This document shows positions 5,957 through 47,896 of a stretch of 64,000 nt of DNA, in pieces. The notes under the pieces were generated by a model. The model was given only the letters and a program-made list of their open reading frames with translations, made no database searches and was not told the origin of the DNA. The translations under genes and the position numbers were made by a program. Position 1 is the first letter of the stretch, and every line of letters begins with the position of its first letter. The DNA comes from a virus, in the IMG/VR virus record IMGVR_UViG_3300046810_000166, positions 29,689-93,688 of that record. One strand, given 5' to 3'.

Positions 5957-5985
5957 ATCATATAACGCATTGCGGTAATATGCAA
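5957..5985 (-). promoter_or_regulatory. Sigma70 promoter with operator in spacer
   Basis: TTGCAT-17bp-TATGAT; ACGCATTGCGG at 5965-5975. Confidence 0.8.
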
Positions 5986-6010
5986 GCACTTTTCATATGA
6001 ATTTCAGGCG

Positions 6011-6038
6011 AAAAAAAGGGCCGCTGTTTAGGCGGCCC
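6011..6038 (-). terminator. Rho-independent terminator
   Basis: GGGCCGC-ctaaaca-GCGGCCC followed by T7 on the minus strand. Confidence 0.8.
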
Positions 6039-6185
6039 GAACGGGTAGTGTGTTTACGATCACGAAGCTAAGCAGGCTCCGTGCAGAGGACCACCGGCAC
6101 CGGGGCGGAATGCCCTATGCCACGATTCGCGGTGCCCTGCGGGAGGCATTCTGCCTCAGTTCACCGGACTTGCCAAGGATTAAGT

Positions 6186-6353
6186 TTACTTTCCCTCAAC
6201 ATCCACGCGATCGGCTACCTTCATCCAGAACAGCTCCACCTCCAGTTCAAGTACGCGGCTCTGCAGCGCGGCCTTGTCCTTGGCGTGCTGGGCCAGCTGC
6301 TTGGCCAGCTCCAGCGGCGTGAGGGTTTGGATGAGGTGATCTACAAGGCTCAT
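6186..6353 (-). CDS. Small coiled-coil hypothetical protein
   Basis: MSLVDHLIQ... with strong codon bias, downstream of the RNA array. Confidence 0.5.
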   Translation of the reverse strand: MSLVDHLIQTLTPLELAKQLAQHAKDKAALQSRVLELEVELFWMKVADRVDVEGK

Positions 6354-6399
6354 GTACGAATAGGATGGGCAAATACATCGGTTCCGACAGCTTCGCACG

Positions 6400-8930
6400 G
6401 TTTCGCGGCCGCGTACTCCCTGACCTGTCAGCCGGATTACGGTTCACCCACTCGGCTGGATTCTGACCGGGCCTCGACCTTCCTTTCTGCTTGTGGCGCG
6501 AACCTACAGCGGCAGCTGATTCGGTCTATCTGTAGCCAGTCTCCAGCCGAATGGGGCCTCTTTCGAGGCTCCACCGGGGCATGTTGCCTTTACGCGGAAC
6601 TGTTCATGCCCTTCCCCGCGCACAGGCGTGTCGACCCGCCTGCTAGTGATGCCGGGCTATTTTCACCGGCTACGTGTTCGCGCGATCTGATCGCGTCGAT
6701 CTTGACGGCTCGACCAATGCCGAGCGGCTACGATCATGCGGCATCACATAAAGAACGGCTGAGGACGATTCAGCAGCATCCAACCATTCACATCCCCTCA
6801 CAAGGGCGGGAGAGCGTAGGAACTTAATCTACGGGTTCACCGGGTTGGTCGTATAGCTTGGCCCATCTACTTTGTTTCGCACCAGCGTGGTTTTCCGGTC
6901 CCGCGCCTTAGCTACTGATTTCAATTGCCCGTTCTTTATGTGATGGCCGGGCCGTAACCCCCGGCGTTGACTCCCTGCCCTTCTCGGGTTTTCAGGCATC
7001 ACAGCCCTGCATCCTGTTCCGCGTGGCCGGAGTCGAACCGGGCTACCATCACGCTGGGACCGCGCCGCGCTTGCAAACGCATTGCGGTGTTCGGCCGAAC
7101 TTACAAGACGCAGGGCTGTGATGGCCGACTTGCAAGGCCGGCTTTAGCTAGGGGGCCGCAGATCAAAGACTAGAACTTTCCAATCTAGGCTTAGTCACCC
7201 CCTCATCACACAGCTTGACCCTTCGCCGATCGTCACCGGCACGATTGAGGCAGGGACTCGAACCCCGCAATGCCGCCCTTCTGGAGCGCCGCTGTACCAC
7301 TTCGCGTTCTCAATCTAAAGACCAAGCTGTGTGACGGCCGGGTCGCAACCCCGGCGTGAGCTGTCGATGCATGACGCCCATATAGCGTTATCGACAAGAA
7401 CTACTCTGTCATGCATCCGCCACACTGCGGTGGCCGGGGCGCAACTCCCGGCTGAGCTGTAGAGGTGCCGGCAATCTATTGGCGAGATTCCGTGACACAA
7501 ACAACAAAATGGCACCTCACACCACACTGCTGGAAGCTGGAGGCAGTCCCGTCATCGCCGGTCAATCCCGACAAATCCAACTCCCAGCAGTGTGGTGGCT
7601 CGCCCTGCCCGAGCCGGCCGGGCGTTGGCACCCGGCGTCGTTCGATGATCCCACCCGCTCGTCGCGGTCCCTTTTTGGAGTGCCTTGCGGCGCCACCGGG
7701 ATACTGGCGGCTTCTCATTACCACACACATGCACCCGGCCTGCTGTCACAGCCGAATGACGCCTCACAGGCCGCCAGCGAGCAAACCGGCATTCAAGCGC
7801 GACCATCAGCAAGGTGCATGTGTCTGGTGCCGGGTTCTTTCCCCCCGGCGTAAGTCAGGCCAGTAGCTTGCCAGAGCGCCCTTCTCACACCGCGCAACGT
7901 CCATAGCCGCCTCGTTGACGAGGTTCCTCACCTCGATTCCCTGCCGCGCGCGTCACATGCCGGTGACTGTTGAAGCCTTGTGTTCATGCCGCTACTTTTC
8001 CGGCTGGCCACCCACTATTGATCATGCATCATCGTAGGTTCGGCTCCTTGGTAGACATTTACTATGACCGTCTTGAAGGGGCAAAGCCATCCAGTCATCC
8101 ATCACCACTGCTGTTCGGTGCCGCTATTTCCCGGCTGCCAGCCTTATTTCCACCGACTCATGACGCCTCGGCGTGCGTCGCAATATCCCGTCCGGCTTGG
8201 GTCCGAGGCCTATCTACTTACTCCTCGACATTGCACCGTGTTGTTCCGGCTCTCGCCGGCACGTGTAGAGCAACCATCCTTCGTGGTTTCCCACATGGAT
8301 GGAACTGGTTGACCCAGCGCGGCGCTGTCGGGCCCCTACTTTACCTGCGCAGAGATCCATGTTGACCGCTACCGCTTGGCAGTCCCATCCATGTGAGGCC
8401 TCTTGCGAAGCTGCACACGCCCGTCTAATGGCACACTCGGGTCCGCCTAATCGCTTGTTTCCATCGACGCACTGGTCAGGTCGGCCCCCTGAAACATGCC
8501 GCCTGAGCCTAGCCGCCGCCGTTGTAGCCGCGATGCTTTGCTGGTCACCCCTGCCTTTCGTGACAGGAACACGGTTGATGAATCGTGGCGCCACGGTTCC
8601 CGCGTGCTTACATTTACACCACTGACCAGCTGATAAGCCGACTTCCTTCCACGCCCGAGGCTATAGTGCTCGGTGCCTTTCCAGATGATGGCTTGTCAGC
8701 TGGGACTGTTGCCAGTCCAAGCCTAGATCACTCGAAGTCCATGCCTGAATGGGGCATGAAAGTTGGAGCCGATCTGGATGTGTCTTTCATCACCCCCCTG
8801 CAGCACAGGGCCATCGTATGGTGAATAAGCTACGGCCTTGTCGGTGCCCATCCGCACCTACGGCCTGTTCTGCCCTGATAAGCACCTTTGCGCTTATCGG
8901 GACATGCTGCTTTGCTGCTGAACTTCAATG
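6400..8930 (-). ncRNA. Putative polycistronic structured ncRNA array (stem-enclosed cargo modules separated by GCCG..CGGC hairpins)
   Basis: No credible ORF; at least 8 long inverted-repeat stems whose mismatches are mostly G-U pairs on the minus strand; about 9 repeated GCCG..CGGC hairpins; flanked by promoter 8937-8965 and terminator 6011-6038. Confidence 0.7.
7243..7315 (-). tRNA. tRNA-like element (non-canonical anticodon arm, no encoded CCA)
   Basis: Acceptor GATTGAG/CTCAATC, D-arm CGC-GAAGTGGTACA-GCG, T-arm GCGGGG-TTCGAGT-CCCTGC; anticodon arm CGCTC-CAGAA-GGGCG has a 5-nt loop. Confidence 0.55.
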
Positions 8931-8936
8931 GAATTC

Positions 8937-8965
8937 ATCATAGCGGCATTACGCATTGCGTGCAA
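8937..8965 (-). promoter_or_regulatory. Sigma70 promoter with operator, facing into the non-coding array
   Basis: TTGCAC-17bp-TATGAT; ACGCATTGCGT at 8951-8961 overlaps -35 and spacer. Confidence 0.8.
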
Positions 8966-9198
8966 GTCCTTTGTTCAACTTTTTTTGCGGCAATGCATCA
9001 GATGCCGCTCGACCTGCGCCTGCAGCTGGCGCAGCCGCTCGCCCTGCTCCCGTACCTTGTCCATATCCGTCCTCGCAAATAGGTGCCGGGCCCGAAGGCC
9101 CGGCGGGTGGCGCCATCCGCCTATGCCTGCAGCGCTTCCCGTTAAAGCGGTGCAGGCAACGTCGCAACTAGGCGACGCTGGCGCCAGCGGTGAACCAC

Positions 9199-9501
9199 CT
9201 ATGCAATCTGTGCGGTCTTCTCGGCCTCGAACTTGGCCTTGAGCGGGGCGGATGCGCTGATGCGGATGCGCACGGCCTCGGGGATGATGCAGGCTTCCAT
9301 GGTGCGCAGGTTACGGCCCGGACGCGCGGCGCACTGCTTGGCGGCGATGTTGGCCAGCCCCGGAACGCGCACGGCGCCATCGGCGGCCAGCTGGCGCGCG
9401 GCCACGACGCCAATGGCGTCAATCGCGGCCTCGGCCTGCACCGTCGACACATTGGCCTGCTTGGCGACCGCCGCGATGAATTCGTCCTTGTTCATTGCCA
9501 T
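9199..9501 (-). CDS. HU-family DNA-binding protein
   Basis: MNKDEFIAAVA...V.VPGL......AARPGRNLRT.E...IP....RIS.S..LK pattern. Confidence 0.88.
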   Translation of the reverse strand: MAMNKDEFIAAVAKQANVSTVQAEAAIDAIGVVAARQLAADGAVRVPGLANIAAKQCAARPGRNLRTMEACIIPEAVRIRISASAPLKAKFEAEKTAQIA

Positions 9502-13060: not shown

Positions 13061-13461
13061 TTGCCACTCCCCTGCGCCATGCGCTGCAGGCTGGACAGCC
13101 CGGTCACCGGGATCTTCTTGGACTTGGCGGGGCGCTTCTCGGCGCGCGGGGCGTCGGTCTTGCCATCCCACAGGCCGAGCCGGATCAGGATGGACTGCGA
13201 GCGCGCCATGGCGACGGCGAACGCACGCTCGACCATGGCCAGCGTCAGCCCGGCCGGGCGCGAGTACTGGCGGTCATAGACCATGTGGCAGTAGTAGCAG
13301 GCGTAGCAGCCATTGTGGTCGAACGCCTTGAGGGCGCCGCCCTTGCCATGCTGGTGGCTGTTCGAGTGCGCCCACACGGTTTTTTCCGGGTCGCCGCAGC
13401 ACACGCCCGGCAGTTTCAGCTCGCACTCGCGGCCGCGTGCGGAATCAGTAATGCGGCTCAT
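13057..13461 (-). CDS. DUF1364-family nuclease-like protein
   Basis: SARGRECELKLPGVC...TVWAH...GKG..K..D...YAC..CH..YD. Confidence 0.85.
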   Translation of the reverse strand: MSRITDSARGRECELKLPGVCCGDPEKTVWAHSNSHQHGKGGALKAFDHNGCYACYYCHMVYDRQYSRPAGLTLAMVERAFAVAMARSQSILIRLGLWDGKTDAPRAEKRPAKSKKIPVTGLSSLQRMAQGSGK

Positions 13462-13707
13462 TTGGCGGCCCCGGCGTCATGCTTCTCAGCAGCAACTTTC
13501 CAGCTGTAAATCTTGTGCAACACTTGCTCCTGAAAATCACCGGGTTTTGCTCTGCTGAATAATTTATATCCAGCAGTAAATGAACTACAATTGTGTCAAA
13601 GCAAGTTCTGTCAGTCAATGCCTACAAAAACTATTTTTCCAGATCAATACGGAAAGCCAACAAGGAAGGTTTTTTCCTGTATATCAGGGGAAATTTCTAC
13701 GAATCTA

Positions 13708-13736
13708 TTGACGCAATGCGTTATGGCAGGTAATAT
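13708..13736 (+). promoter_or_regulatory. Sigma70 promoter with operator (recombination operon)
   Basis: TTGACG-17bp-TAATAT; ACGCAATGCGT at 13711-13721. Confidence 0.8.
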
Positions 13737-13845
13737 ACGACTCACTGGAATCAGCTTCACAGGCAGGACGGGAGAAGCCGGTAAAACACCTCGGTGCATA
13801 GCGCCGGCCTCCCGATAACAACAACGTCAACAATCGGGAGTTTTT

Positions 13846-13974
13846 ATGGATCGCACCTACCAGATCAACGAATTCAGCGTGACCCGCACCACGCGCCGCC
13901 GCCAGCGTATCGGTGGCACCATCCTCAAGGCCATCGTCCTGATCGCCGCCGTCGCCTTCGTGGTGTGGAAATGA
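13846..13974 (+). CDS. 42-aa single-TM peptide (not in ORF track)
   Basis: GGGAG RBS; MDRTYQINEF...KAIVLIAAVAFVVWK; stop overlaps the next ATG. Confidence 0.55.
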   Translation: MDRTYQINEFSVTRTTRRRQRIGGTILKAIVLIAAVAFVVWK

Positions 13975-14264
13975 TCGTCGCCCCTGCCTACCCTCGCATC
14001 CGCCGCGCCGGCCGTGTGCGCCGCGTCTTCCTGTCGCTGCACCGTGCGCGCCTGATCTGGAATATCACCGGCGCCGGCATCGAGCTGGCATCCCTGCAGC
14101 GCATCATCGACAACGATGTGACCGTGATCTACACCTACCCGCACCTGCGCCCGAAGCTGCTGCCGACGATCGACGCCCGCTACATCGAGCGCGAAGCGAT
14201 CGAGAAGGATCTGGCCAAGTGGAACCGCACCCTCAAGGTGATCGAGCAGGAGCTGCACCAGTGA
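13971..14264 (+). CDS. Hypothetical protein
   Basis: ATGA/GTGA-coupled on both sides. Confidence 0.55.
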   Translation: MIVAPAYPRIRRAGRVRRVFLSLHRARLIWNITGAGIELASLQRIIDNDVTVIYTYPHLRPKLLPTIDARYIEREAIEKDLAKWNRTLKVIEQELHQ

Positions 14265-21172: not shown

Positions 21173-21201
21173 TTGCAACACTAACGCATTGCGTATATAG
21201 T
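21173..21201 (+). promoter_or_regulatory. Sigma70 promoter with operator
   Basis: TTGCAA-17bp-TATAGT; ACGCATTGCGT at 21184-21194. Confidence 0.85.
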
Positions 21202-22903: not shown

Positions 22904-22932
22904 TTGCACAGCTAACGCATTGCGTATATTAT
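22904..22932 (+). promoter_or_regulatory. Sigma70 promoter with operator
   Basis: TTGCAC-17bp-TATTAT; ACGCATTGCGT at 22915-22925. Confidence 0.85.
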
Positions 22933-22968: not shown

Positions 22969-23712
22969 ATGGCCGCCACCCACACCGGACACTGCCAAAT
23001 CTGCGGACGACAGCACAAGGTCACCGGCACCCGCATCGCCAAGCACGGCTTCACCATCCGCTTCGGCTGGCAGGAAGGTGCCTGCTTCGGCTCGGGCGGC
23101 AAGCCGTACGAGCTGTCCAACGACCTGCTGCTGCGTGCGATCGAGTCGGCCAAGCGCTACATCGCCGACACGAACGTCAAGATCCGGGGCGTCAAGGCGC
23201 GCCCGGTGGACGAGGAAGGCTATGTCAAGGCGCGCGTGGCCGAGCAGCGCTACAGCCCGGACACCTACTATACCGAGGTCAAGATCACCGAGGTGGACGG
23301 CAAGATCGAGGCCCGCACCCGCAGCGACCGCCGCGTGTTCCTGCAGGACGCGCCGCGCCACAAGGAGGAGCTGGCCAAGGTCATCGAGATCGTGAGCGGC
23401 AAATATGTGGCCTACCTGCAGCACACCGTCAAGGAAACCCAAGCCGCGATCCCGCACATGCAGGAGCGTCATGACAGCTGGAAGTTGGCCGAACTGACCC
23501 CGATCAGCGCCGAGGAAGCCGCCGCCAGCGCGCCCAAGGTCCACTATCAGGTCAAGCGCTACGGCTACACCACGACCGCCTGCAGCGCCTCGGCGACGGC
23601 CTCCCAGCGCAACGCCTCGCGCATCAAGACAACCGACGCCAGCAAGGTGACCTGCGCCGCCTGCGCCAAGGAAGCGGCGCGCCTCGCGGCGAAGGCGGCC
23701 GCCGCAACTTAA
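22969..23712 (+). CDS. Hypothetical early protein with Zn-finger-like ends
   Basis: GHCQICG...HG.....G.C.GS N-terminus; VTCxxC C-terminus. Confidence 0.65.
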   Translation: MAATHTGHCQICGRQHKVTGTRIAKHGFTIRFGWQEGACFGSGGKPYELSNDLLLRAIESAKRYIADTNVKIRGVKARPVDEEGYVKARVAEQRYSPDTYYTEVKITEVDGKIEARTRSDRRVFLQDAPRHKEELAKVIEIVSGKYVAYLQHTVKETQAAIPHMQERHDSWKLAELTPISAEEAAASAPKVHYQVKRYGYTTTACSASATASQRNASRIKTTDASKVTCAACAKEAARLAAKAAAAT

Positions 23713-23738
23713 TCGGAATTTACGAGGAAAATCAGATG

Positions 23739-23760
23739 AAGCCCGCCGTGCGCGGGCTTT
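23739..23760. terminator. Hairpin between convergent early and late genes
   Basis: AAGCCCG-ccgtgcg-CGGGCTT. Confidence 0.55.
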
Positions 23761-24223
23761 ACTTTTTGCGGGCTTCCTCGCGCACGTCCAGCAGCTGCTT
23801 CTCCATCTGGTCGATGCGCTGCTGCTGCACGGCGTTGATCTCGGTGTTCTTGCCGACCTGCGCGAAGATCCAGCCGCCGGCGGCGAACACGATGGCCGAG
23901 AACACGCCGCAGAACCAGACCGCGACGCGCAGCCCGGCGGTAGCCTTGGACTCCAGCGCGGACGCCTGCTTCGACACGGCGTCGATGCTGGTGGTCAGCG
24001 CCTTGGTCGAGGCCTTGTGGCCCTCGTTGCACGCGGCGGTCTGCTCGCGCGTATCCTGCAGTTTCTCGTCCATGTGGCGGACGTTCATCTGTAACTCAGT
24101 CAGGTTCCGATCAATCGGCCCCATCAGGCGCTGAATGGCGCTCTCAATGCGCTGCACGCTTTCAGATACGGATTCCATTTTCCCTTCGAGCCGGGCAAGG
24201 CGCTGAACTCCGTCATCGGTCAT
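23759..24223 (-). CDS. Coiled-coil single-TM protein (lysis accessory / holin-like)
   Basis: Heptad repeats plus one TM helix; own late-type promoter at 24308. Confidence 0.55.
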   Translation of the reverse strand: MTDDGVQRLARLEGKMESVSESVQRIESAIQRLMGPIDRNLTELQMNVRHMDEKLQDTREQTAACNEGHKASTKALTTSIDAVSKQASALESKATAGLRVAVWFCGVFSAIVFAAGGWIFAQVGKNTEINAVQQQRIDQMEKQLLDVREEARKK

Positions 24224-24299
24224 GGGGAGCCCCTGCGCGTGTGGTAATTGGTGGTGAAGTGCATCTTGGCATCCCCGGTAGTATTAAGCGATGCCTCCC

Positions 24300-24315
24300 A
24301 CGTTACCGTCACGAA
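24300..24315 (-). promoter_or_regulatory. Late promoter motif (variant)
   Basis: TTCGTGAC-gg-TAACGT. Confidence 0.55.
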
Positions 24316-24332
24316 TCAGTATCGGAACAGTC

Positions 24333-24896
24333 CTACAAGAGCAGGGGCGGCGCGACTACGTGGCGGATGCTCCACAGCGTGGTTTCGGTGATGAAGCCGC
24401 AGTCAGAGAGCACATCCGAGCCGGCCGCCGTGATGGTGCCGGCGCAGCCCTCGTAGCAGCTCCATTTCGATGGGTCTTGCCAGTCGCGATCCGGGGCGAA
24501 GCCCATGCCGAACGCGCCCTTGAAATCGTAGTTGTTGTTCAGCAGGTACAGCGGGATCTCCAGCACCTTGCGCAGCCAGCCCGGCACCCACGCCTTGAAC
24601 TGCGGCACATAGGCGCACTTCTGGCCGCGATACCAGTCCAGCCCGGCCTTGGCGTCCCGCACCGGGTAGTAGGCCTCGCGCACGATGCGCGCGCCCTTGA
24701 TGGCCACGGCCAGCGGCACCTCGCGCACGCCGTAGATCATGTTCGCCTCGATCGCACTGTCGCCGTCGACCACGATGCCGTGCGAGGACTTCTGGAACGA
24801 GAGTTTGCTGGGCCCGACCATCCAGCGGATGAGCCAGCTCAGCGGGTTCCATAGCCGGGCCGTGTAGATAACGCGAATGTACTGCTGACGTGGCAT
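24333..24896 (-). CDS. Permuted papain-like amidase (YiiX/YebB, NlpC/P60)
   Basis: SH-G-I near the N-terminus, YDF.G, W-S-C-Y-E catalytic Cys near the C-terminus. Confidence 0.7.
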   Translation of the reverse strand: MPRQQYIRVIYTARLWNPLSWLIRWMVGPSKLSFQKSSHGIVVDGDSAIEANMIYGVREVPLAVAIKGARIVREAYYPVRDAKAGLDWYRGQKCAYVPQFKAWVPGWLRKVLEIPLYLLNNNYDFKGAFGMGFAPDRDWQDPSKWSCYEGCAGTITAAGSDVLSDCGFITETTLWSIRHVVAPPLLL

Positions 24897-24934
24897 GACT
24901 CCTCCGAAAAGAAAATGGCGGCATTGCTGCCGCC

Positions 24935-39074: not shown

Positions 39075-40549
39075 GCGGTGCCTTTCATGTTGCGCTCGGA
39101 CTGGTATTGCGCATCCTGACGCTGGGCGCGCGCGGCGAAGCCGGTGCCGCGCTCGAACGACACCGAGGTCTTGAACGGGCCGAAGGGCACGAAGGAATGG
39201 GTGACGGCGGTGACGTAGTGCAGGGATGGATCGCCACCGCCGAAGGCCGCGCGCACGTAGCCGCCCCGGCGCACGCGCTCGTTGCCGGCGATCGTCATCT
39301 GGCCATCCTCCAGCACCGCGTTATCCTTGTTCTGCTCGGCGAGGATGCGGCGGCGCTCGGTCAGCCATGCGATCAGGCGGTCGGTTTCCACCTTCGATTC
39401 CGGCACCTGCAGCGCGTCACCGTACTGGCCGCCCGGCGGCCCGAGGGCGCTGGACACCTCCATCTTGCGGAAGCCGAAGCGCGCCGCGCTGGCGTTCTCG
39501 TATTCCATCAGCGCGTAATCGTCCTTGTTACCGGCGGCCGCCAGCTGGCTGACCTCGATCGTGTCGCGGATCTGCCAGCCGAAGTTGTTGACCCAAAAGT
39601 AATTGGCCACGCCGGCGTCGGTGCGCCCTTCGCTGATGCTCTCGATGTCGACGGCAGGCACGTCCACGATCGAGGCCAGCCAGTCCTCCAGCGCCGCGTC
39701 GGTTTCTTGGATCAGGTGGCCGTGCAGGTCGACAAAGCGGTTCGGCCGGATCACCAGCACCGAGGTGGTGTCGCGGTCGTCCACGAACATTTCGTTGAAG
39801 GCGCCCACGTCGAGGAACTGGCTCAGGAAGCTGCGCACGCTGCCATCGTTGAACAGCGCCACCGACAGCGGCGACACGGTGCCCTCGATCGTCACCTCGG
39901 CCTCCAGCTGGACCAGCACCTGCGCGCCGACGATCACGCCGGTCGAGTTGCGGGTCAGGCGCGCAATGAACGGGTTGATCACCTTGTCCAGCACCAGCTC
40001 GGCGAACTCCTTGGCGCTCATGATCTTGGCGTCGCTCAGGCTGGCATATTTCTCGAAGAATCCCAGCTCGGTCAGGATGTTGTCGCCCACCACCGAGTTG
40101 TTCAGGTAGTAGATGCGGATGATGTCGAGGATCTTGGAAAAGTCGCTGCCGGCCAAGTGCACGCGGCGGTGCGGATGGCCGCCCATGTTCGAGCGCGTGC
40201 GGTCGATCGAGGACACGAAGCCGCGCAGCACCACCGGCAGCCCGCTGTGGCCGTATTCGTGCGGAGAGCGCGCCATGCGGATCTCGATGATGTCGTTGGC
40301 CTCGATCATCGCGTACAGCGTTTCCCCCTCGTCCGGCATCATGCGGTCGACCAGCGTGAGGCTCCACGACCCGGCGCCACCCAGCTGCTGGCGGATGGTG
40401 ACGGGCTCGCCCTCGGCGAGGTAGGGCGTCAGGTCGATCCCGGTGATCTCGCCGTAGCGCGCGGCCACCGGCACGCCGGGCACCAGCTCGGTGCGGCGTG
40501 CGGTCTTGATCAGGCGGACCTCGATCTGCGGGCTGTAGGTGCGGATCAT
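39071..40549 (-). CDS. Baseplate hub protein
   Basis: Position after the tape measure; G...I.GNE.VR.G.Y...YV..V.H.F....T...RG. Confidence 0.7.
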   Translation of the reverse strand: MIRTYSPQIEVRLIKTARRTELVPGVPVAARYGEITGIDLTPYLAEGEPVTIRQQLGGAGSWSLTLVDRMMPDEGETLYAMIEANDIIEIRMARSPHEYGHSGLPVVLRGFVSSIDRTRSNMGGHPHRRVHLAGSDFSKILDIIRIYYLNNSVVGDNILTELGFFEKYASLSDAKIMSAKEFAELVLDKVINPFIARLTRNSTGVIVGAQVLVQLEAEVTIEGTVSPLSVALFNDGSVRSFLSQFLDVGAFNEMFVDDRDTTSVLVIRPNRFVDLHGHLIQETDAALEDWLASIVDVPAVDIESISEGRTDAGVANYFWVNNFGWQIRDTIEVSQLAAAGNKDDYALMEYENASAARFGFRKMEVSSALGPPGGQYGDALQVPESKVETDRLIAWLTERRRILAEQNKDNAVLEDGQMTIAGNERVRRGGYVRAAFGGGDPSLHYVTAVTHSFVPFGPFKTSVSFERGTGFAARAQRQDAQYQSERNMKGTA

Positions 40550-44955: not shown

Positions 44956-45461
44956 TTCTTGCCCTTCTCGAACGTGCGCCCCACGAACCAGAAGCCAAGG
45001 ATGCCCCACAGGATCGCAGCATCATCCGGGCTCCAGCACTGGATGATCGACACCCATGGGTCGGTCGTGCGCAGCGCCACCACGATCATGGCTGTCTTGA
45101 CGATGCCGTAGCAGCCGAGGAAGTAGTAGGTGGTGAGCGGGCGCACCAGCACGTTGAGGGCGTCGACCCACCACACGCCCACCTTCTGCATCTGGTCGTG
45201 CAGGGCCTGCGCGGTGGCGTCCATCGCCTTGAGGGCGAAGTTGATGTCGCCGGTCAGCTGGGCCTCGCTCATGGCGGCGGCGTGCTGCGCGCCGATCTCG
45301 GCGGTGCGATTGGCGCCTTTCAGCTGTTCCAGCTGGACCTGCTTGTCCATCATGGCCAGCTCATGGCTGTTATCGGTTTTCTTGTTGAGGAGCGCCAGCA
45401 GCTCGGGCAGCAGGCGCAGCAGGCCGCCACCGAGGGCGGACAGGATGGAAATCAAGGTCAT
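44952..45461 (-). CDS. Putative holin (3TM-holin-like)
   Basis: VRP..TY...I.GFWF.GR.FEK; TM segments; upstream of the endolysin. Confidence 0.7.
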   Translation of the reverse strand: MTLISILSALGGGLLRLLPELLALLNKKTDNSHELAMMDKQVQLEQLKGANRTAEIGAQHAAAMSEAQLTGDINFALKAMDATAQALHDQMQKVGVWWVDALNVLVRPLTTYYFLGCYGIVKTAMIVVALRTTDPWVSIIQCWSPDDAAILWGILGFWFVGRTFEKGKK

Positions 45462-45512
45462 GGAGGACTCCAGAAAGACACCGCCCCGGCGAACCGGGGC
45501 GGGAGGTTTGAC

Positions 45513-45947
45513 TTACAGGCCGGTGCCGGATACGTCGATCGCCATGAATTGCGCGTTCGAGGTCACGATGCGGTGCGCCACCACCTCGGTGTCGCCGGAC
45601 ACGTAGGTGCAGCCGGTGTACTTGCGCAGCACGTCGCTTTCGTCCTTGCCGTAGGTGGTGATGTCGAACACGCGGCCCTTGAGCACGGCGTCGGCATTCT
45701 CGGCGTAGATGCCCGCGTTGCGGGTCAGCTCCTTGAGCAGCACCATCTTGGACACGCTGACCGAGTGGCGCGCTTGCCCCGGCACGTACTCGACCACGTG
45801 GGCGTCGCCGATGCCGCTGGCGCCTTCGTGGCCGTAGTCGTCGCTGGAGCGCACGCTTTGGACCAGTCCGATATCGATGCCGCCGAACGAAATCACGGTG
45901 CGATTGCCCGAGCGGACCTTGAGGTTAGTTTGCAGGTTTGCAGACAT
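45513..45947 (-). CDS. Tail tube protein
   Basis: 144 aa directly after the sheath; G.VQS...D.G.....IG.....E.VP. Confidence 0.8.
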   Translation of the reverse strand: MSANLQTNLKVRSGNRTVISFGGIDIGLVQSVRSSDDYGHEGASGIGDAHVVEYVPGQARHSVSVSKMVLLKELTRNAGIYAENADAVLKGRVFDITTYGKDESDVLRKYTGCTYVSGDTEVVAHRIVTSNAQFMAIDVSGTGL

Positions 45948-45961
45948 TCTTTACTCCGGTG

Positions 45962-47677
45962 TTATGCCGAGGCCGTGCCGCTGTACGGGACAGCGGAAAC
46001 GGTCTGCAGCACGTAGTTGGCGGGCAGCACGATGCTGGCCTCGTATTGCACCTTGATGGCGGTGCCTTCGATGTAGCCGCGCAGCTTGCGATACGGCGGG
46101 TTGGCTTCGTCGCCGACCAGCACGCCCGGACCCATCGGTTCCGGCACGGCGGCCGCTTTCAACGCGCCCTCGGCACGCGCCAGCGCATCCTGCAGCGCCA
46201 GCGGTCCCAGCTTGCCGCCACGGACGCCGTCGACGGCTTCCTGCACGCTACGGCGCACGAAGTCGGCACCGGCGCCCACGGACACCTCGGTGCGGGTGTA
46301 TTCGTCGCCCGAGGTGTAGGTGGTGATGGACTGGACCACCTTGACGGTGCCGTTGTCGTTCTCCAGCGGCAGCACGCCGGCCTGCAGCAGCAGGTCGGTG
46401 TCGGTCGGCACGGACAGCTCGCGCTCGACACCCTGCACCTTGATCGACTTGCCGGTCAGCGGGGTGCCCGGCGTGACGCCGGCGGCCATGCCAGCCAGCA
46501 GCGCGGCGGTGACGTAGGCCGGGTACAGCGTGAGCTTGTTCTGGCCGTTGTAGTCGTAGATGCCGAGGTGCGCATGGGCGACGCGCTCGGCGTTCAGCAC
46601 GCGCGCGGCGTCCATCGCGACGGTGTCGGCGATGCCGATGTCGCCGCCGGTGAAGGCGCGACGGAAGCGCTTGGTGGTGCCGGACACGAACGCGCAGTGC
46701 GCGCTGGCCATGGCCCACACGGCCGGCAGCGGCGACAGCGGGGCGATCCACTGCACGTCCGCCTTCTTGAGCTCATCGAACGCGGCCTGCCATTCGGCGT
46801 TGGTCACCACGCCATCGGAAGCGCCCGACAGGTAGGTGAAGGCGATGTTGGCTGGGACCGCGCCCGCGCCGACCGCGCGTTCGGCGGTGACGAAGCCTTC
46901 GCCGGCACTGTTCAGCCAGTCGATGCAGGCCTGCAGGTGGGCGGTGACGACCACCAGCGCGCCCTTGGCGTCGGCGTTGGCGGCGAAGTCCAGACCGTTC
47001 AGGGCCGGCTGGGTGCCGCTGCCATCGAGCACGTTGGCGGTGAAGCCCGGCACGGTGTTGATGCGGTCGACCAGCTCCTGCACGGTCGGGAAGTCGTTCA
47101 GGTCCAGCGCGGCGGTGTTGGCGCCATAGGCGAGCGTGACGGCATCGGTGGCCACGGTAACGGTGGCAGTCGCCTCCGCGCCGGCGTAGCGCACCGAAAA
47201 GGCGTTGCGCGCGACGTTGTCGGCGCTGGCGTAGTTGTTGCCCAGCTGGGTGGTCAGCTTCTTGCCGGCGATCGAGCCGGATTCCACCTTGACCTTGATC
47301 TGGTTGTTCGGGCGGCCGTAGTCGGTCGACTTGAGGTTGATCGCGGCGGTGTTGGCGCCATCCTTGAGCACCAGCGCGGCCTGCGTCGCCGGGTTCACGC
47401 GGACGAATGCGAGCTTCGAGGGCACGCCGGTTTCGCTGGACGGATCGAAGGCCTTTTCGATCGCTTTCAGCAGGATGTCGTCGCCCTTGAGGGCGGCGCG
47501 CGCTTCCTCGGCCGAGCCGAAGTAAAGCACGGTGAGCGGCTTGCCGCCATTGGCGCGGCCGATCAGCGCGGCCACGTTGCCGGTGCCGGCGCCACGGTTA
47601 TACATGGCCGAATCATCGATGATCGACGCACTTGCGGGCGTGATCAGCTGGCGGCCGCCAAAAAATACTTTGGACAT
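45962..47677 (-). CDS. Contractile tail sheath protein
   Basis: 571 aa; PLT.K.I...E......D.L...GV..L......VV..ITT C-terminal sheath motif. Confidence 0.88.
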   Translation of the reverse strand: MSKVFFGGRQLITPASASIIDDSAMYNRGAGTGNVAALIGRANGGKPLTVLYFGSAEEARAALKGDDILLKAIEKAFDPSSETGVPSKLAFVRVNPATQAALVLKDGANTAAINLKSTDYGRPNNQIKVKVESGSIAGKKLTTQLGNNYASADNVARNAFSVRYAGAEATATVTVATDAVTLAYGANTAALDLNDFPTVQELVDRINTVPGFTANVLDGSGTQPALNGLDFAANADAKGALVVVTAHLQACIDWLNSAGEGFVTAERAVGAGAVPANIAFTYLSGASDGVVTNAEWQAAFDELKKADVQWIAPLSPLPAVWAMASAHCAFVSGTTKRFRRAFTGGDIGIADTVAMDAARVLNAERVAHAHLGIYDYNGQNKLTLYPAYVTAALLAGMAAGVTPGTPLTGKSIKVQGVERELSVPTDTDLLLQAGVLPLENDNGTVKVVQSITTYTSGDEYTRTEVSVGAGADFVRRSVQEAVDGVRGGKLGPLALQDALARAEGALKAAAVPEPMGPGVLVGDEANPPYRKLRGYIEGTAIKVQYEASIVLPANYVLQTVSAVPYSGTASA

Positions 47678-47686
47678 GGGTTCCCC

Positions 47687-47896
47687 TTATGCCGGGCGGT
47701 TGATGAACTGGTCGAAGCGGGCCGAGTAGGCCGGTGCCGTGTCGACCGTGCGGCCGGCGGCTGCTTCTTCCGAGTGGAAGGCGCCGATCAGCTCGACGCG
47801 GCGGTCGGATGCGGACAGGCGGGTGCAGTACTCGTCCAGCGACAGGGGGATCTCCTCGTCACCTTGGGGCGCTGCCTTGGCGGTTTCTTTTGCCAT
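47687..47896 (-). CDS. Small tail-associated protein
   Basis: GAGG RBS; upstream of the sheath. Confidence 0.55.
   Translation of the reverse strand: MAKETAKAAPQGDEEIPLSLDEYCTRLSASDRRVELIGAFHSEEAAAGRTVDTAPAYSARFDQFINRPA

Follow-up and report, generated by a model that had tools for sequence, protein, structure and literature searches.

What is a phage to do with 2.5 kb of DNA that encode no protein? The question is raised by an uncultured soil phage known from an IMG/VR record (IMGVR_UViG_3300046810_000166) that is complete at 93,688 bp and carries direct terminal repeats. Bases 29689-93688 of the record make up the window analyzed here, a stretch of 64,000 nucleotides, and coordinates refer to this window unless another sequence is named. 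Between positions 6400 and 8930 lies a tract that an earlier description of the letters (the original prediction) had presented as a series of long inverted repeats, each enclosing unrelated sequence. The tract is found to hold ten long stems on the minus strand, each placed directly after a small hairpin and each closing around a different cargo. This layout points to a structured RNA made of modular cassettes, one of which appears to contain a mimic of a transfer RNA (tRNA).

The nine inverted-repeat pairs listed in the original prediction are all present at or within a few bases of the positions given for them, and a tenth (8627-8643/8686-8702) is added. Each of the resulting ten stems is preceded within 0-1 nt by a hairpin of 5-8 bp (10/10), whereas only ~8% of the genome's remaining stems of 13 bp or more have such a neighbor. 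Six of the hairpins are of the type GCCGG(G/C)-loop-(G/C)YCGGC and three carry GNRA tetraloops. Because the abutting hairpins use at least six different stem sequences, the element that recurs is a structure and not a fixed sequence. The closing helices span 10-22 bp, and their cargoes, of 34-170 nt, are unrelated between units. When the 93,688-bp genome was scanned for uninterrupted helices with G-U pairs allowed, only six minus-strand stems of at least 17 bp were found, five of them within 1.7 kb of the tract (6742-8397). The sixth, a 19-bp stem with one G-U pair at 39545-39683 (minus strand), lies inside a structural gene.

The cassettes, all on the minus strand, are described here in the 5′ to 3′ direction of that strand, with folding z-scores calculated against dinucleotide shuffles; eight units were folded on both strands and cassette C was folded separately. 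Cassette H (8627-8718) opens with a GCAA-tetraloop hairpin (8703-8718), followed by a helix (8686-8702/8627-8643) around ~42 nt (z=-5.31). Cassette G (8290-8411) consists of a hairpin (8398-8411) and an 18-bp helix (8380-8397/8290-8307) around 72 nt, with a z-score of -4.51 on the minus strand and -1.24 on the plus strand. In cassette F (7720-7849; z=-5.43), a hairpin at 7829-7849 precedes a helix (7813-7828/7720-7735) whose interior is one long irregular hairpin. Cassette E (7520-7636; z=-6.96) has two hairpins (7617-7636 and 7597-7615) and a 22-bp helix (7576-7597/7520-7541) around 34 nt. It is directly abutted by cassette D2 (7462-7518; z=-2.33), a stem of 8-11 bp with a 40-nt A/U-rich loop. 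Two hairpins (7433-7452 and 7417-7433) also open cassette D (7366-7452; z=-1.59), which is closed by a 10-bp stem (7408-7417/7366-7375). Cassette C (7204-7355; z=-3.76) comprises a hairpin (7337-7355) and a 20-bp helix (7317-7336/7204-7223), and its cargo combines the tRNA mimic (7243-7314) with an inner hairpin (7225-7240). In cassette B (6997-7142; z=-5.61), a hairpin (7124-7142) is followed by a 21-bp helix (7103-7123/6997-7017) that encloses a T-arm-like minihelix (CCGGUUCGACUCCGG) and an operator-like site (7077-7087). Cassette A (6742-6965) carries the largest interior, a branched cargo of 170 nt, behind a hairpin at 6946-6965 and a perfect 17-bp helix (6929-6945/6742-6758). Finally, cassette Z (6447-6569; z=-5.58) has a GAAA-tetraloop hairpin (6556-6569) and a helix (6537-6555/6447-6465) around 71 nt.

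Several features indicate on which strand this structure is kept. Over all aligned arm positions, 12 wobbles read as G-U on the minus strand and six on the plus strand; in the cores of the stems, the numbers are 11 and one (one-sided binomial about 0.003). Since 11 of the 12 core wobbles are G-U pairs on the minus strand, selection appears to act on a minus-strand RNA, as had been proposed from the wobbles when the tract was first described. Folding agrees with this claim. Of the eight units folded on both strands, six have minus-strand z-scores between -4.5 and -7.0 and six score better on the minus strand than on the plus strand; the minimum free energy (MFE) is 13-19 kcal/mol lower on the minus strand in four units. 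Given a cloverleaf on the same strand, the sensible reading of the tract is therefore a minus-strand structured RNA rather than a set of DNA palindromes, as far as sequence can tell.

The cloverleaf is the cargo of cassette C. It is a 72-nt element (7243-7314) whose acceptor stem pairs perfectly over 7 bp, whose D-loop contains GG and whose T-arm is canonical (GGGGUUCGAGUCCCU). Its D and anticodon stems are mismatched, its anticodon loop has 5 nt (or 7 nt without U33), and it lacks CCA. The element aligns end to end with the tRNA family RF00005 at 15.8 bits, against a cut-off of 29; ARAGORN at default settings calls no tRNA genes, and RF00005 has no match at expect values (E) up to 10 in the genome. 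By its predicted fold, the cargo is thus a tRNA mimic and not a tRNA. Its acceptor end is sealed by the enclosing 20-bp helix, and the sealed tRNA shape suggests that the RNA may bind or decoy tRNA-recognizing proteins. The modularity claimed earlier therefore holds, in that each stem has a different cargo and one cargo is a tRNA mimic.

The closing helices also share a short sequence at their base. Their first 7 nt are semi-conserved, with CAUCACA (twice), CGUCACA, CACCACA, ACCAGACA and CUCACAU as variants, and each helix is unique beyond that point. The base of the helix pairs CAYCACA with UGUGRUG. The related CATCAC/CACCAC stem starts that had been noticed at the outset are thus real. The accompanying claim was that one unit was duplicated while its cargo was replaced; unit duplication is visible for cassettes D2 and D, which have the linker ACAGCUCA(C)GCCGGG in common, and this common linker looks like a trace of tandem duplication.

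The array itself is non-coding. The spread of GC content between codon positions is 0.01-0.11 over 6300-8850, compared with 0.35-0.48 in the flanking genes, and a map of the whole genome built on GC content at third codon positions (GC3) leaves one outstanding gap, the 3,367 bp between 5832 and 9199, in which no open reading frame (ORF) with gene-like GC3 is found. Both results bear out the absence of a credible ORF from 6400-8930. One correction applies to the picture of a gene-free tract: a possible 55-codon ORF (6186-6353, minus strand) sits inside the transcription unit, between the array and the terminator. Its GC content by codon position is coding-like (0.73/0.27/0.77) and its peptide is coiled-coil-like; it has no Shine-Dalgarno sequence and no Pfam match.

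As predicted from the sequence, the transcription unit spans ~2.9 kb of the minus strand, from ~8930 to a terminator ending at 6018. The single unit proposed earlier is upheld by the operator-bearing promoter and the terminator that bracket the tract. The promoter, TTGCAC-17-TATGAT (8937-8965, minus strand), is present together with its operator, although "near-consensus" was too generous a description, as the -35 box matches at 3/6 positions only and a promoter scan made no call. The operator is a palindromic 11-nt sequence (ACGCAATGCGT, 8951-8961) that overlaps the -35 box and the spacer. At the other end, the terminator placed by the original prediction at 6011-6038 is confirmed as a strong intrinsic terminator (6038-6018, minus strand), GGGCCGC-loop-GCGGCCC with seven G-C pairs and U7. 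Between the promoter and cassette H, positions 8719-8930 fold locally as a structured 5′ leader with small hairpins (for example, 8875-8899) and show no coding signal.

The operator motif, ACGCAWTGCGK (T or G at the last position), occurs six times in the window, where 0.36 occurrences would be expected. Five of these sites (5965-5975, 8951-8961, 13711-13721, 21184-21194 and 22915-22925) lie in sigma-70-type promoters with 17-nt spacers, while the sixth, at 7077-7087 inside cassette B, has no surrounding promoter. Because the motif is enriched and five sites fall in promoters of like build, it is a fair inference that the array promoter is repressor-controlled. The shared operator in five promoters looks like an early regulon under a single repressor.

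Does the array belong to a described RNA family? In Rfam, no family reached gathering scores in the whole window, and searches of the tract and of two sub-regions returned only noise at E up to 10, which is the outcome anticipated when the tract was first described as unrecognized. Neither standard nor permuted transfer-messenger RNA (tmRNA; RF00023, RF01849-51, RF04321) matched the tract or 7960-8420 at E up to 10; the same methods find the tmRNA of Bordetella phage PHB04 at 104.5 bits. Under relaxed settings ARAGORN proposed tRNA-like cargo in cassettes G, C and B, as well as a permuted tmRNA at 8383-8004 (tag APNSSGDG). All of these calls were rejected as noise, given 166 tRNA calls genome-wide and ~2 per shuffled 3 kb at this setting.

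Other candidates were considered and set aside. A C4 or c4-like antisense RNA (RF01695 and related) has no Rfam match, and the longest complement to downstream leaders, 9-10 nt, is at chance level; more broadly, no antisense complement beyond chance was found in the phage genome or in the downstream leaders. A CRISPR array, repeat mimics or iterons do not fit, as positions 6000-9000 contain no direct-repeat family and the hairpins share structure only. Miniature inverted-repeat transposable elements (MITEs) were rejected because there are no copies elsewhere and no target-site duplications at the arm ends. An integron attC array was rejected for want of ORFs between the palindromes and of copies elsewhere, the phage not having been scanned for a recombinase. 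GGA motifs are not enriched, as they would be in a CsrA/RsmA sponge.

Sequence searches for homologs were likewise negative. A blastn comparison of the tract with phage and plasmid collections gave no match. A DNA pattern for the hairpin and stem found 36 loci in IMG/VR, none with an adjoining long stem. Of the proteins encoded next to the array, the HU-like protein and a 144-aa protein in IMG/VR, and a 188-aa protein in JGI metagenomes, retrieved nothing; in a set of 5.8 billion proteins the 144-aa protein has one match (61%), on a 1.8-kb contig. The 72 RecT loci inspected are mosaic and the array is present in none. Among the closest IMG/VR relatives, a fragment with 81% capsid identity (G001) breaks before the array region and another (G002) has coding DNA there.

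Relatives of the phage can nevertheless be compared by layout. The phage is a myovirus with sheath, baseplate, portal and major head proteins, and its capsid protein shares 58% identity with that of Pseudomonas phage Touem01, 55% with that of Morganella phage Mecenats66 and 46% with the capsid proteins of both Bordetella phage PHB04 and Pseudomonas phage Dolphis; Aeromonas phage ST4 also matches. At the syntenic position, Dolphis and Mecenats66 lack any comparable island. PHB04 (NC_047861.1), from the same phage clade, has a non-coding island of similar size, 2.7 kb at 45077-47782, which encodes tRNA-Met, tRNA-Asn, tRNA-Pro and a circularly permuted tmRNA (RF04321, 104.5 bits, tag ANDDYIRAAA). 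Like the array, this island contains hairpin-plus-long-stem units (45975-46075 and 46356-46441). In the PHB04 tmRNA gene, the acceptor strand and CCA come directly after the T-arm hairpin and run into a 13-bp extension that closes an excised spacer. This spacer, the intervening segment of RF04321, has a long helix starting on the CCA end, and so reproduces the hairpin-then-closing-helix topology of the array. The PHB04 island differs in its genuine tRNAs, its tmRNA and the RtcB ligase gene upstream, none of which is found in the phage studied here; RtcB in particular is absent from its genome.

One short sequence is shared with the PHB04 island. The 26-nt block GGACCCAAGCCGGACGGGAUAUUGCG (8179-8204, minus strand), located between cassettes G and F, matches PHB04 45409-45433 with 92% identity over 26 nt (blastn, E 0.003). 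In IMG/VR the block retrieves only PHB04 and chance matches in coding DNA, and a two-sequence consensus fold is uninformative. Regarding PHB04 itself, its tRNAs and tmRNA (45118-46432) carry no annotation in the RefSeq stretch inspected, the annotation places a 37-codon 'gp047' within the non-coding island, and the RtcB gene lies ~3 kb upstream of the island. The same type of tmRNA is also found in the Achromobacter N4-like phages Axy11 and JWDelta (84-87% identity).

In ST4, a hairpin abuts an 18-20 bp helix starting ACCAACAGGAAAG, ~440 nt upstream of three tRNAs. Touem01 (PP179325.1) has an unannotated 945-nt gap with its own terminator (13271-14216), in which two sub-threshold tRNA-like elements (13581-13654, 20.5 bits; 13951-14049, 23.9 bits to tRNA-Sec) are sealed by extended acceptor stems; a third T-arm occurs at 14071. 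Elsewhere in Touem01, a T-arm-like 17-mer (AGAGGTTCGAATCCTTT, 63651) is identical to one in Dolphis (40299). In Touem01 it adjoins the integrase gene and probably represents an attP core derived from a tRNA gene of the host.

A further parallel is the leader of the ban operon in phage P1 (NC_005856.1, 68668-70232). It begins with the C1-controlled promoter Pban (68668-68696), followed by an annotated dicF-like region, tRNA-Asn and tRNA-Thr, and four long stems lie on the ban strand (69064-69145, 69502-69595, 69736-69817 and 70005-70086). In the stem at 69502-69595, pairing starts at the CCA end of tRNA-Thr and a T-arm lies in the interior; the stem at 69736-69817 is preceded by a GCCGG...CCGGC hairpin (GCCGGAACCGUAACCGGC). 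Like the array, the P1 leader combines a repressor-controlled sigma-70 promoter with over 1 kb in which the transcribed strand has no credible gene, and with serial long stems that have different interiors. The stem bases look related in their first few nt (CACAACAGG in P1; CAUCACAG and CACCACAC in the array), and the P1 stem base CACAACAGGUAAGGG is similar to the ST4 stem and bears a looser likeness to CAYCACAG in the array. P1 differs in having three real tRNAs, four or five bulged stems, and a leader that continues into protein genes (tciA-C, ban). The array, by comparison, lacks real tRNAs, comprises about ten cassettes with helices that are longer and cleaner, and has a terminator of its own. 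In the P1 annotation, the genes plp and upl (68691-70240) are drawn opposite the ban operon where the ban strand carries long-stem cassettes, and possibly neither annotated protein is real.

In all ten units of the array, a hairpin is thus followed directly on its 3′ side by a long helix that closes around variable cargo, and the layout also occurs in P1, PHB04 and ST4. It still holds that no Rfam family covers the array, and no description of such arrays was found in Rfam or in the literature searched; the notion of an isolated oddity has to be amended, as the same layout stands beside tRNA and tmRNA genes in PHB04, ST4 and P1. By analogy with these phages, the array is probably a tRNA-free member of a wider, unannotated class of phage stable-RNA cassettes.

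Processed RNAs from other systems suggest how such cassettes might be released. Helices of about two turns are the classic substrate of RNase III, as in the rRNA leader-trailer stems and the early sites of T7, and an RNase III step makes DicF in the Qin dicBF operon. When RNase III cuts the bracketing helices of the rRNA type, it leaves a clamped stub. The array resembles the 16S/23S rRNA leader-trailer stems, T7 and DicF in that its two-turn helices would bracket a stable RNA in a predicted polycistronic precursor. The T7 sites, though, are irregular single hairpins between mRNAs and the rRNA stems bracket known RNAs, while the array stems each have an abutting hairpin. Small stable phage RNAs are also known from T4 (species 1 and 2) and T5, where they are co-transcribed and processed with tRNA-type precursors; these are few and lie among real tRNAs, and they are likened to the array by description and not by sequence.

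Bacterial and phage Y RNAs of the YrlA type offer a further comparison. These RNAs are bound by Ro60/Rsr, occur in phages, and consist of a long stem formed by the ends around a tRNA-like module, with several cut from one precursor (PMC4201824). In YrlA the module has the order T-arm, closed acceptor-like stem, D-arm, carries a GNCGAAN0-1G motif and is encoded beside rsr (Chen et al., 2014; PMC4201824). The array shares the long stem around a tRNA-like module; its cloverleaf, in contrast, has the normal order, and the phage has no TROVE or DUF2828 protein. Ro60 (TROVE, PF05731) and DUF2828 (PF11443) are absent from the complete 93.7-kb genome, the PF11443 search having been run without a positive control. 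A Y RNA of this type was set aside, as Rfam scans reported no family at gathering scores and none of the Y RNA families when E was allowed up to 10.

Taken together, the reading preferred here, and held with about as much doubt as confidence, is that the array is an early polycistronic minus-strand precursor whose closing helices are RNase III-type processing and stabilizing sites that release small structured RNAs. A precursor of ~2.9 kb would be transcribed early from the operator-bearing promoter, and its near-perfect helices (17-22 bp) would be cut by host RNase III. The minihelix-like hairpins beside these helices may be recognized by RNase P or RNase E, the weak step in this scheme; alternatively, they could serve as 3′ stabilizers of the preceding product. 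The precursor would thereby be diced into small RNAs whose ends are clamped in a protective helix stub, hence stable. As to what the cargoes do once released, tRNA-shaped decoys and protein-binding scaffolds are the leading guesses. A bolder version, which we consider improbable without dismissing it, makes the array a self-contained early battery of trans-acting RNAs, with the helix and hairpin as a universal release handle, the cargoes as decoys or sponges for host tRNA-targeting or RNA-sensing defenses, and the cassettes swapped between phages. In a more speculative variant, the juxtaposed ends would be ligated into circular RNAs by an RtcB-type ligase, an enzyme encoded by PHB04 and not by this phage.

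Several observations weigh against the preferred reading. The flanking hairpins have GNRA or other loops instead of T-loops, and CCA follows in only two of ten cases, which makes recognition by tRNA-processing enzymes doubtful. Cassettes D (z=-1.6) and D2 (z=-2.3) are weak, with minus-strand folds no better than those of the plus strand, and the wobble pair in stem H falls on the plus strand. The array sequence occurs in the source rhizosphere metagenome and in a second rhizosphere metagenome (the same phage at low depth); all of these runs are DNA, and no RNA run is listed among those that contain it. No sequence homolog of the array appeared in any phage, plasmid or IMG/VR collection searched. 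The link to P1, ST4 and PHB04 is one of shared architecture and a short, loose stem-base motif, not of a scored model: likeness in the closing helix is limited to the first 6-8 nt (CAYCACAG and CACAACAGG), and blastn between the arrays recovers the 26-nt PHB04 block only.

How, then, do other explanations fare? The tract could act in cis, as a long structured 5′ untranslated region (UTR) that tunes the stability, termination/antitermination or timing of the 55-codon ORF or, by read-through, of the next operon. The lambda N leader and the P1 ban leader would be parallels for such a role, and we allow this reading an appreciable, if clearly minor, chance. The coding-like small ORF does share a transcription unit with the array, between it and the terminator, comparable cassettes in P1 form the leader of the ban operon, and an operator-like site lies inside cassette B. 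Even so, 2.5 kb and ten cassettes are far beyond any known leader's need for an ORF of 55 codons, one that has neither a Shine-Dalgarno sequence nor a known family; the strong terminator and a separate operator-bearing promoter (5990-5960) part the unit from the next operon, and a complete tRNA-shaped cargo is hard to account for as leader structure. A lesser likelihood attaches to a single large, ornate non-coding RNA, formed by the tract or by large parts of it, that would function as a unit like GOLLD, ROOL or OLE. Perfect helices of 17-22 bp in such an RNA would be cut by RNase III, and the strong helices of the array all form locally without overlap, the fold showing no long-range pairing. 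GOLLD, ROOL and other Rfam families also fail to match even at E up to 10. Large phage RNAs of these types do occur near tRNA genes, and the 5′ third of the tract (8930-7860), which is structured, has few long perfect stems and carries the sole block shared with PHB04, speaks for this explanation.

That the tract is a decaying remnant of a PHB04-type tRNA-tmRNA island, with no present function, is suggested by the contrast between relatives with real tRNAs and a tmRNA and a phage with only a sub-threshold tRNA look-alike and T-arm fragments. Drift, however, would not keep a perfect 17-bp helix or helices of 20-22 bp, nor 11 of 12 core wobbles on one strand, and the hairpin-plus-stem layout in 10/10 units, the operator-bearing promoter and the strong terminator are all kept, so that this explanation seems very unlikely. 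Hardly any weight is given to repeats that matter at the DNA level, whether MITE-like, integron attC-like, or cruciform or origin structures. The arms do start with a shared heptamer, as terminal inverted repeats do, and G-T wobbles would stabilize single-stranded DNA hairpins too; but the arms differ beyond 7 nt, no ORF cassettes lie between the palindromes, direct repeats, iterons and target-site duplications are missing, and no copies occur elsewhere in the genome or in the collections searched, while the promoter, the terminator and the tRNA cloverleaf indicate RNA.

The array bears on how phage tRNA regions are understood. Clusters of tRNA genes in phages are usually explained as aids to codon usage, and the intervening DNA is overlooked or wrongly annotated as encoding small proteins. 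The genes plp and upl of P1 and gp047 of PHB04 exemplify such mis-annotation. To these islands the array adds a version without any real tRNA, the largest set of clean helices, and its own regulated promoter and terminator. Because a tRNA-free array keeps a promoter, a terminator and the signs of RNA-level selection, the cassettes may be the purpose of such operons instead of by-products of tRNA genes, which argues that they are functional in their own right. Should the helix and hairpin prove to be a release handle, a large, hidden population of phage small RNAs could be uncovered, and the handle would offer a natural design for multiplexed RNA expression; should the cargoes be defense decoys, the array would be the RNA counterpart of an anti-defense gene island. 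Since P1 has the same layout under Pban, the question is testable in a standard laboratory system, and P1 is the practical choice because the phage studied here is uncultured.

The surroundings of the array belong to the early region. An HU-like gene (9199-9501) lies on one side and small minus-strand genes without assigned function on the other; searches of 20 flanking proteins against Pfam and PHROGs revealed no RNA-related function. The second-largest gene-free gap of the genome, 1.5 kb at genome positions 23368-24911 (~4.8-6.3 kb before the start of the window), has no long stems. Between the HU-like gene and the array promoter, a possible 29-codon ORF (MDKVREQGERLRQLQAQVERHLMHCRKKS, read by eye) occupies 8973-9062 on the minus strand, and it is preceded by a hairpin (GCCGGGCCUUCGGGCCCGGC) at 9085-9104.

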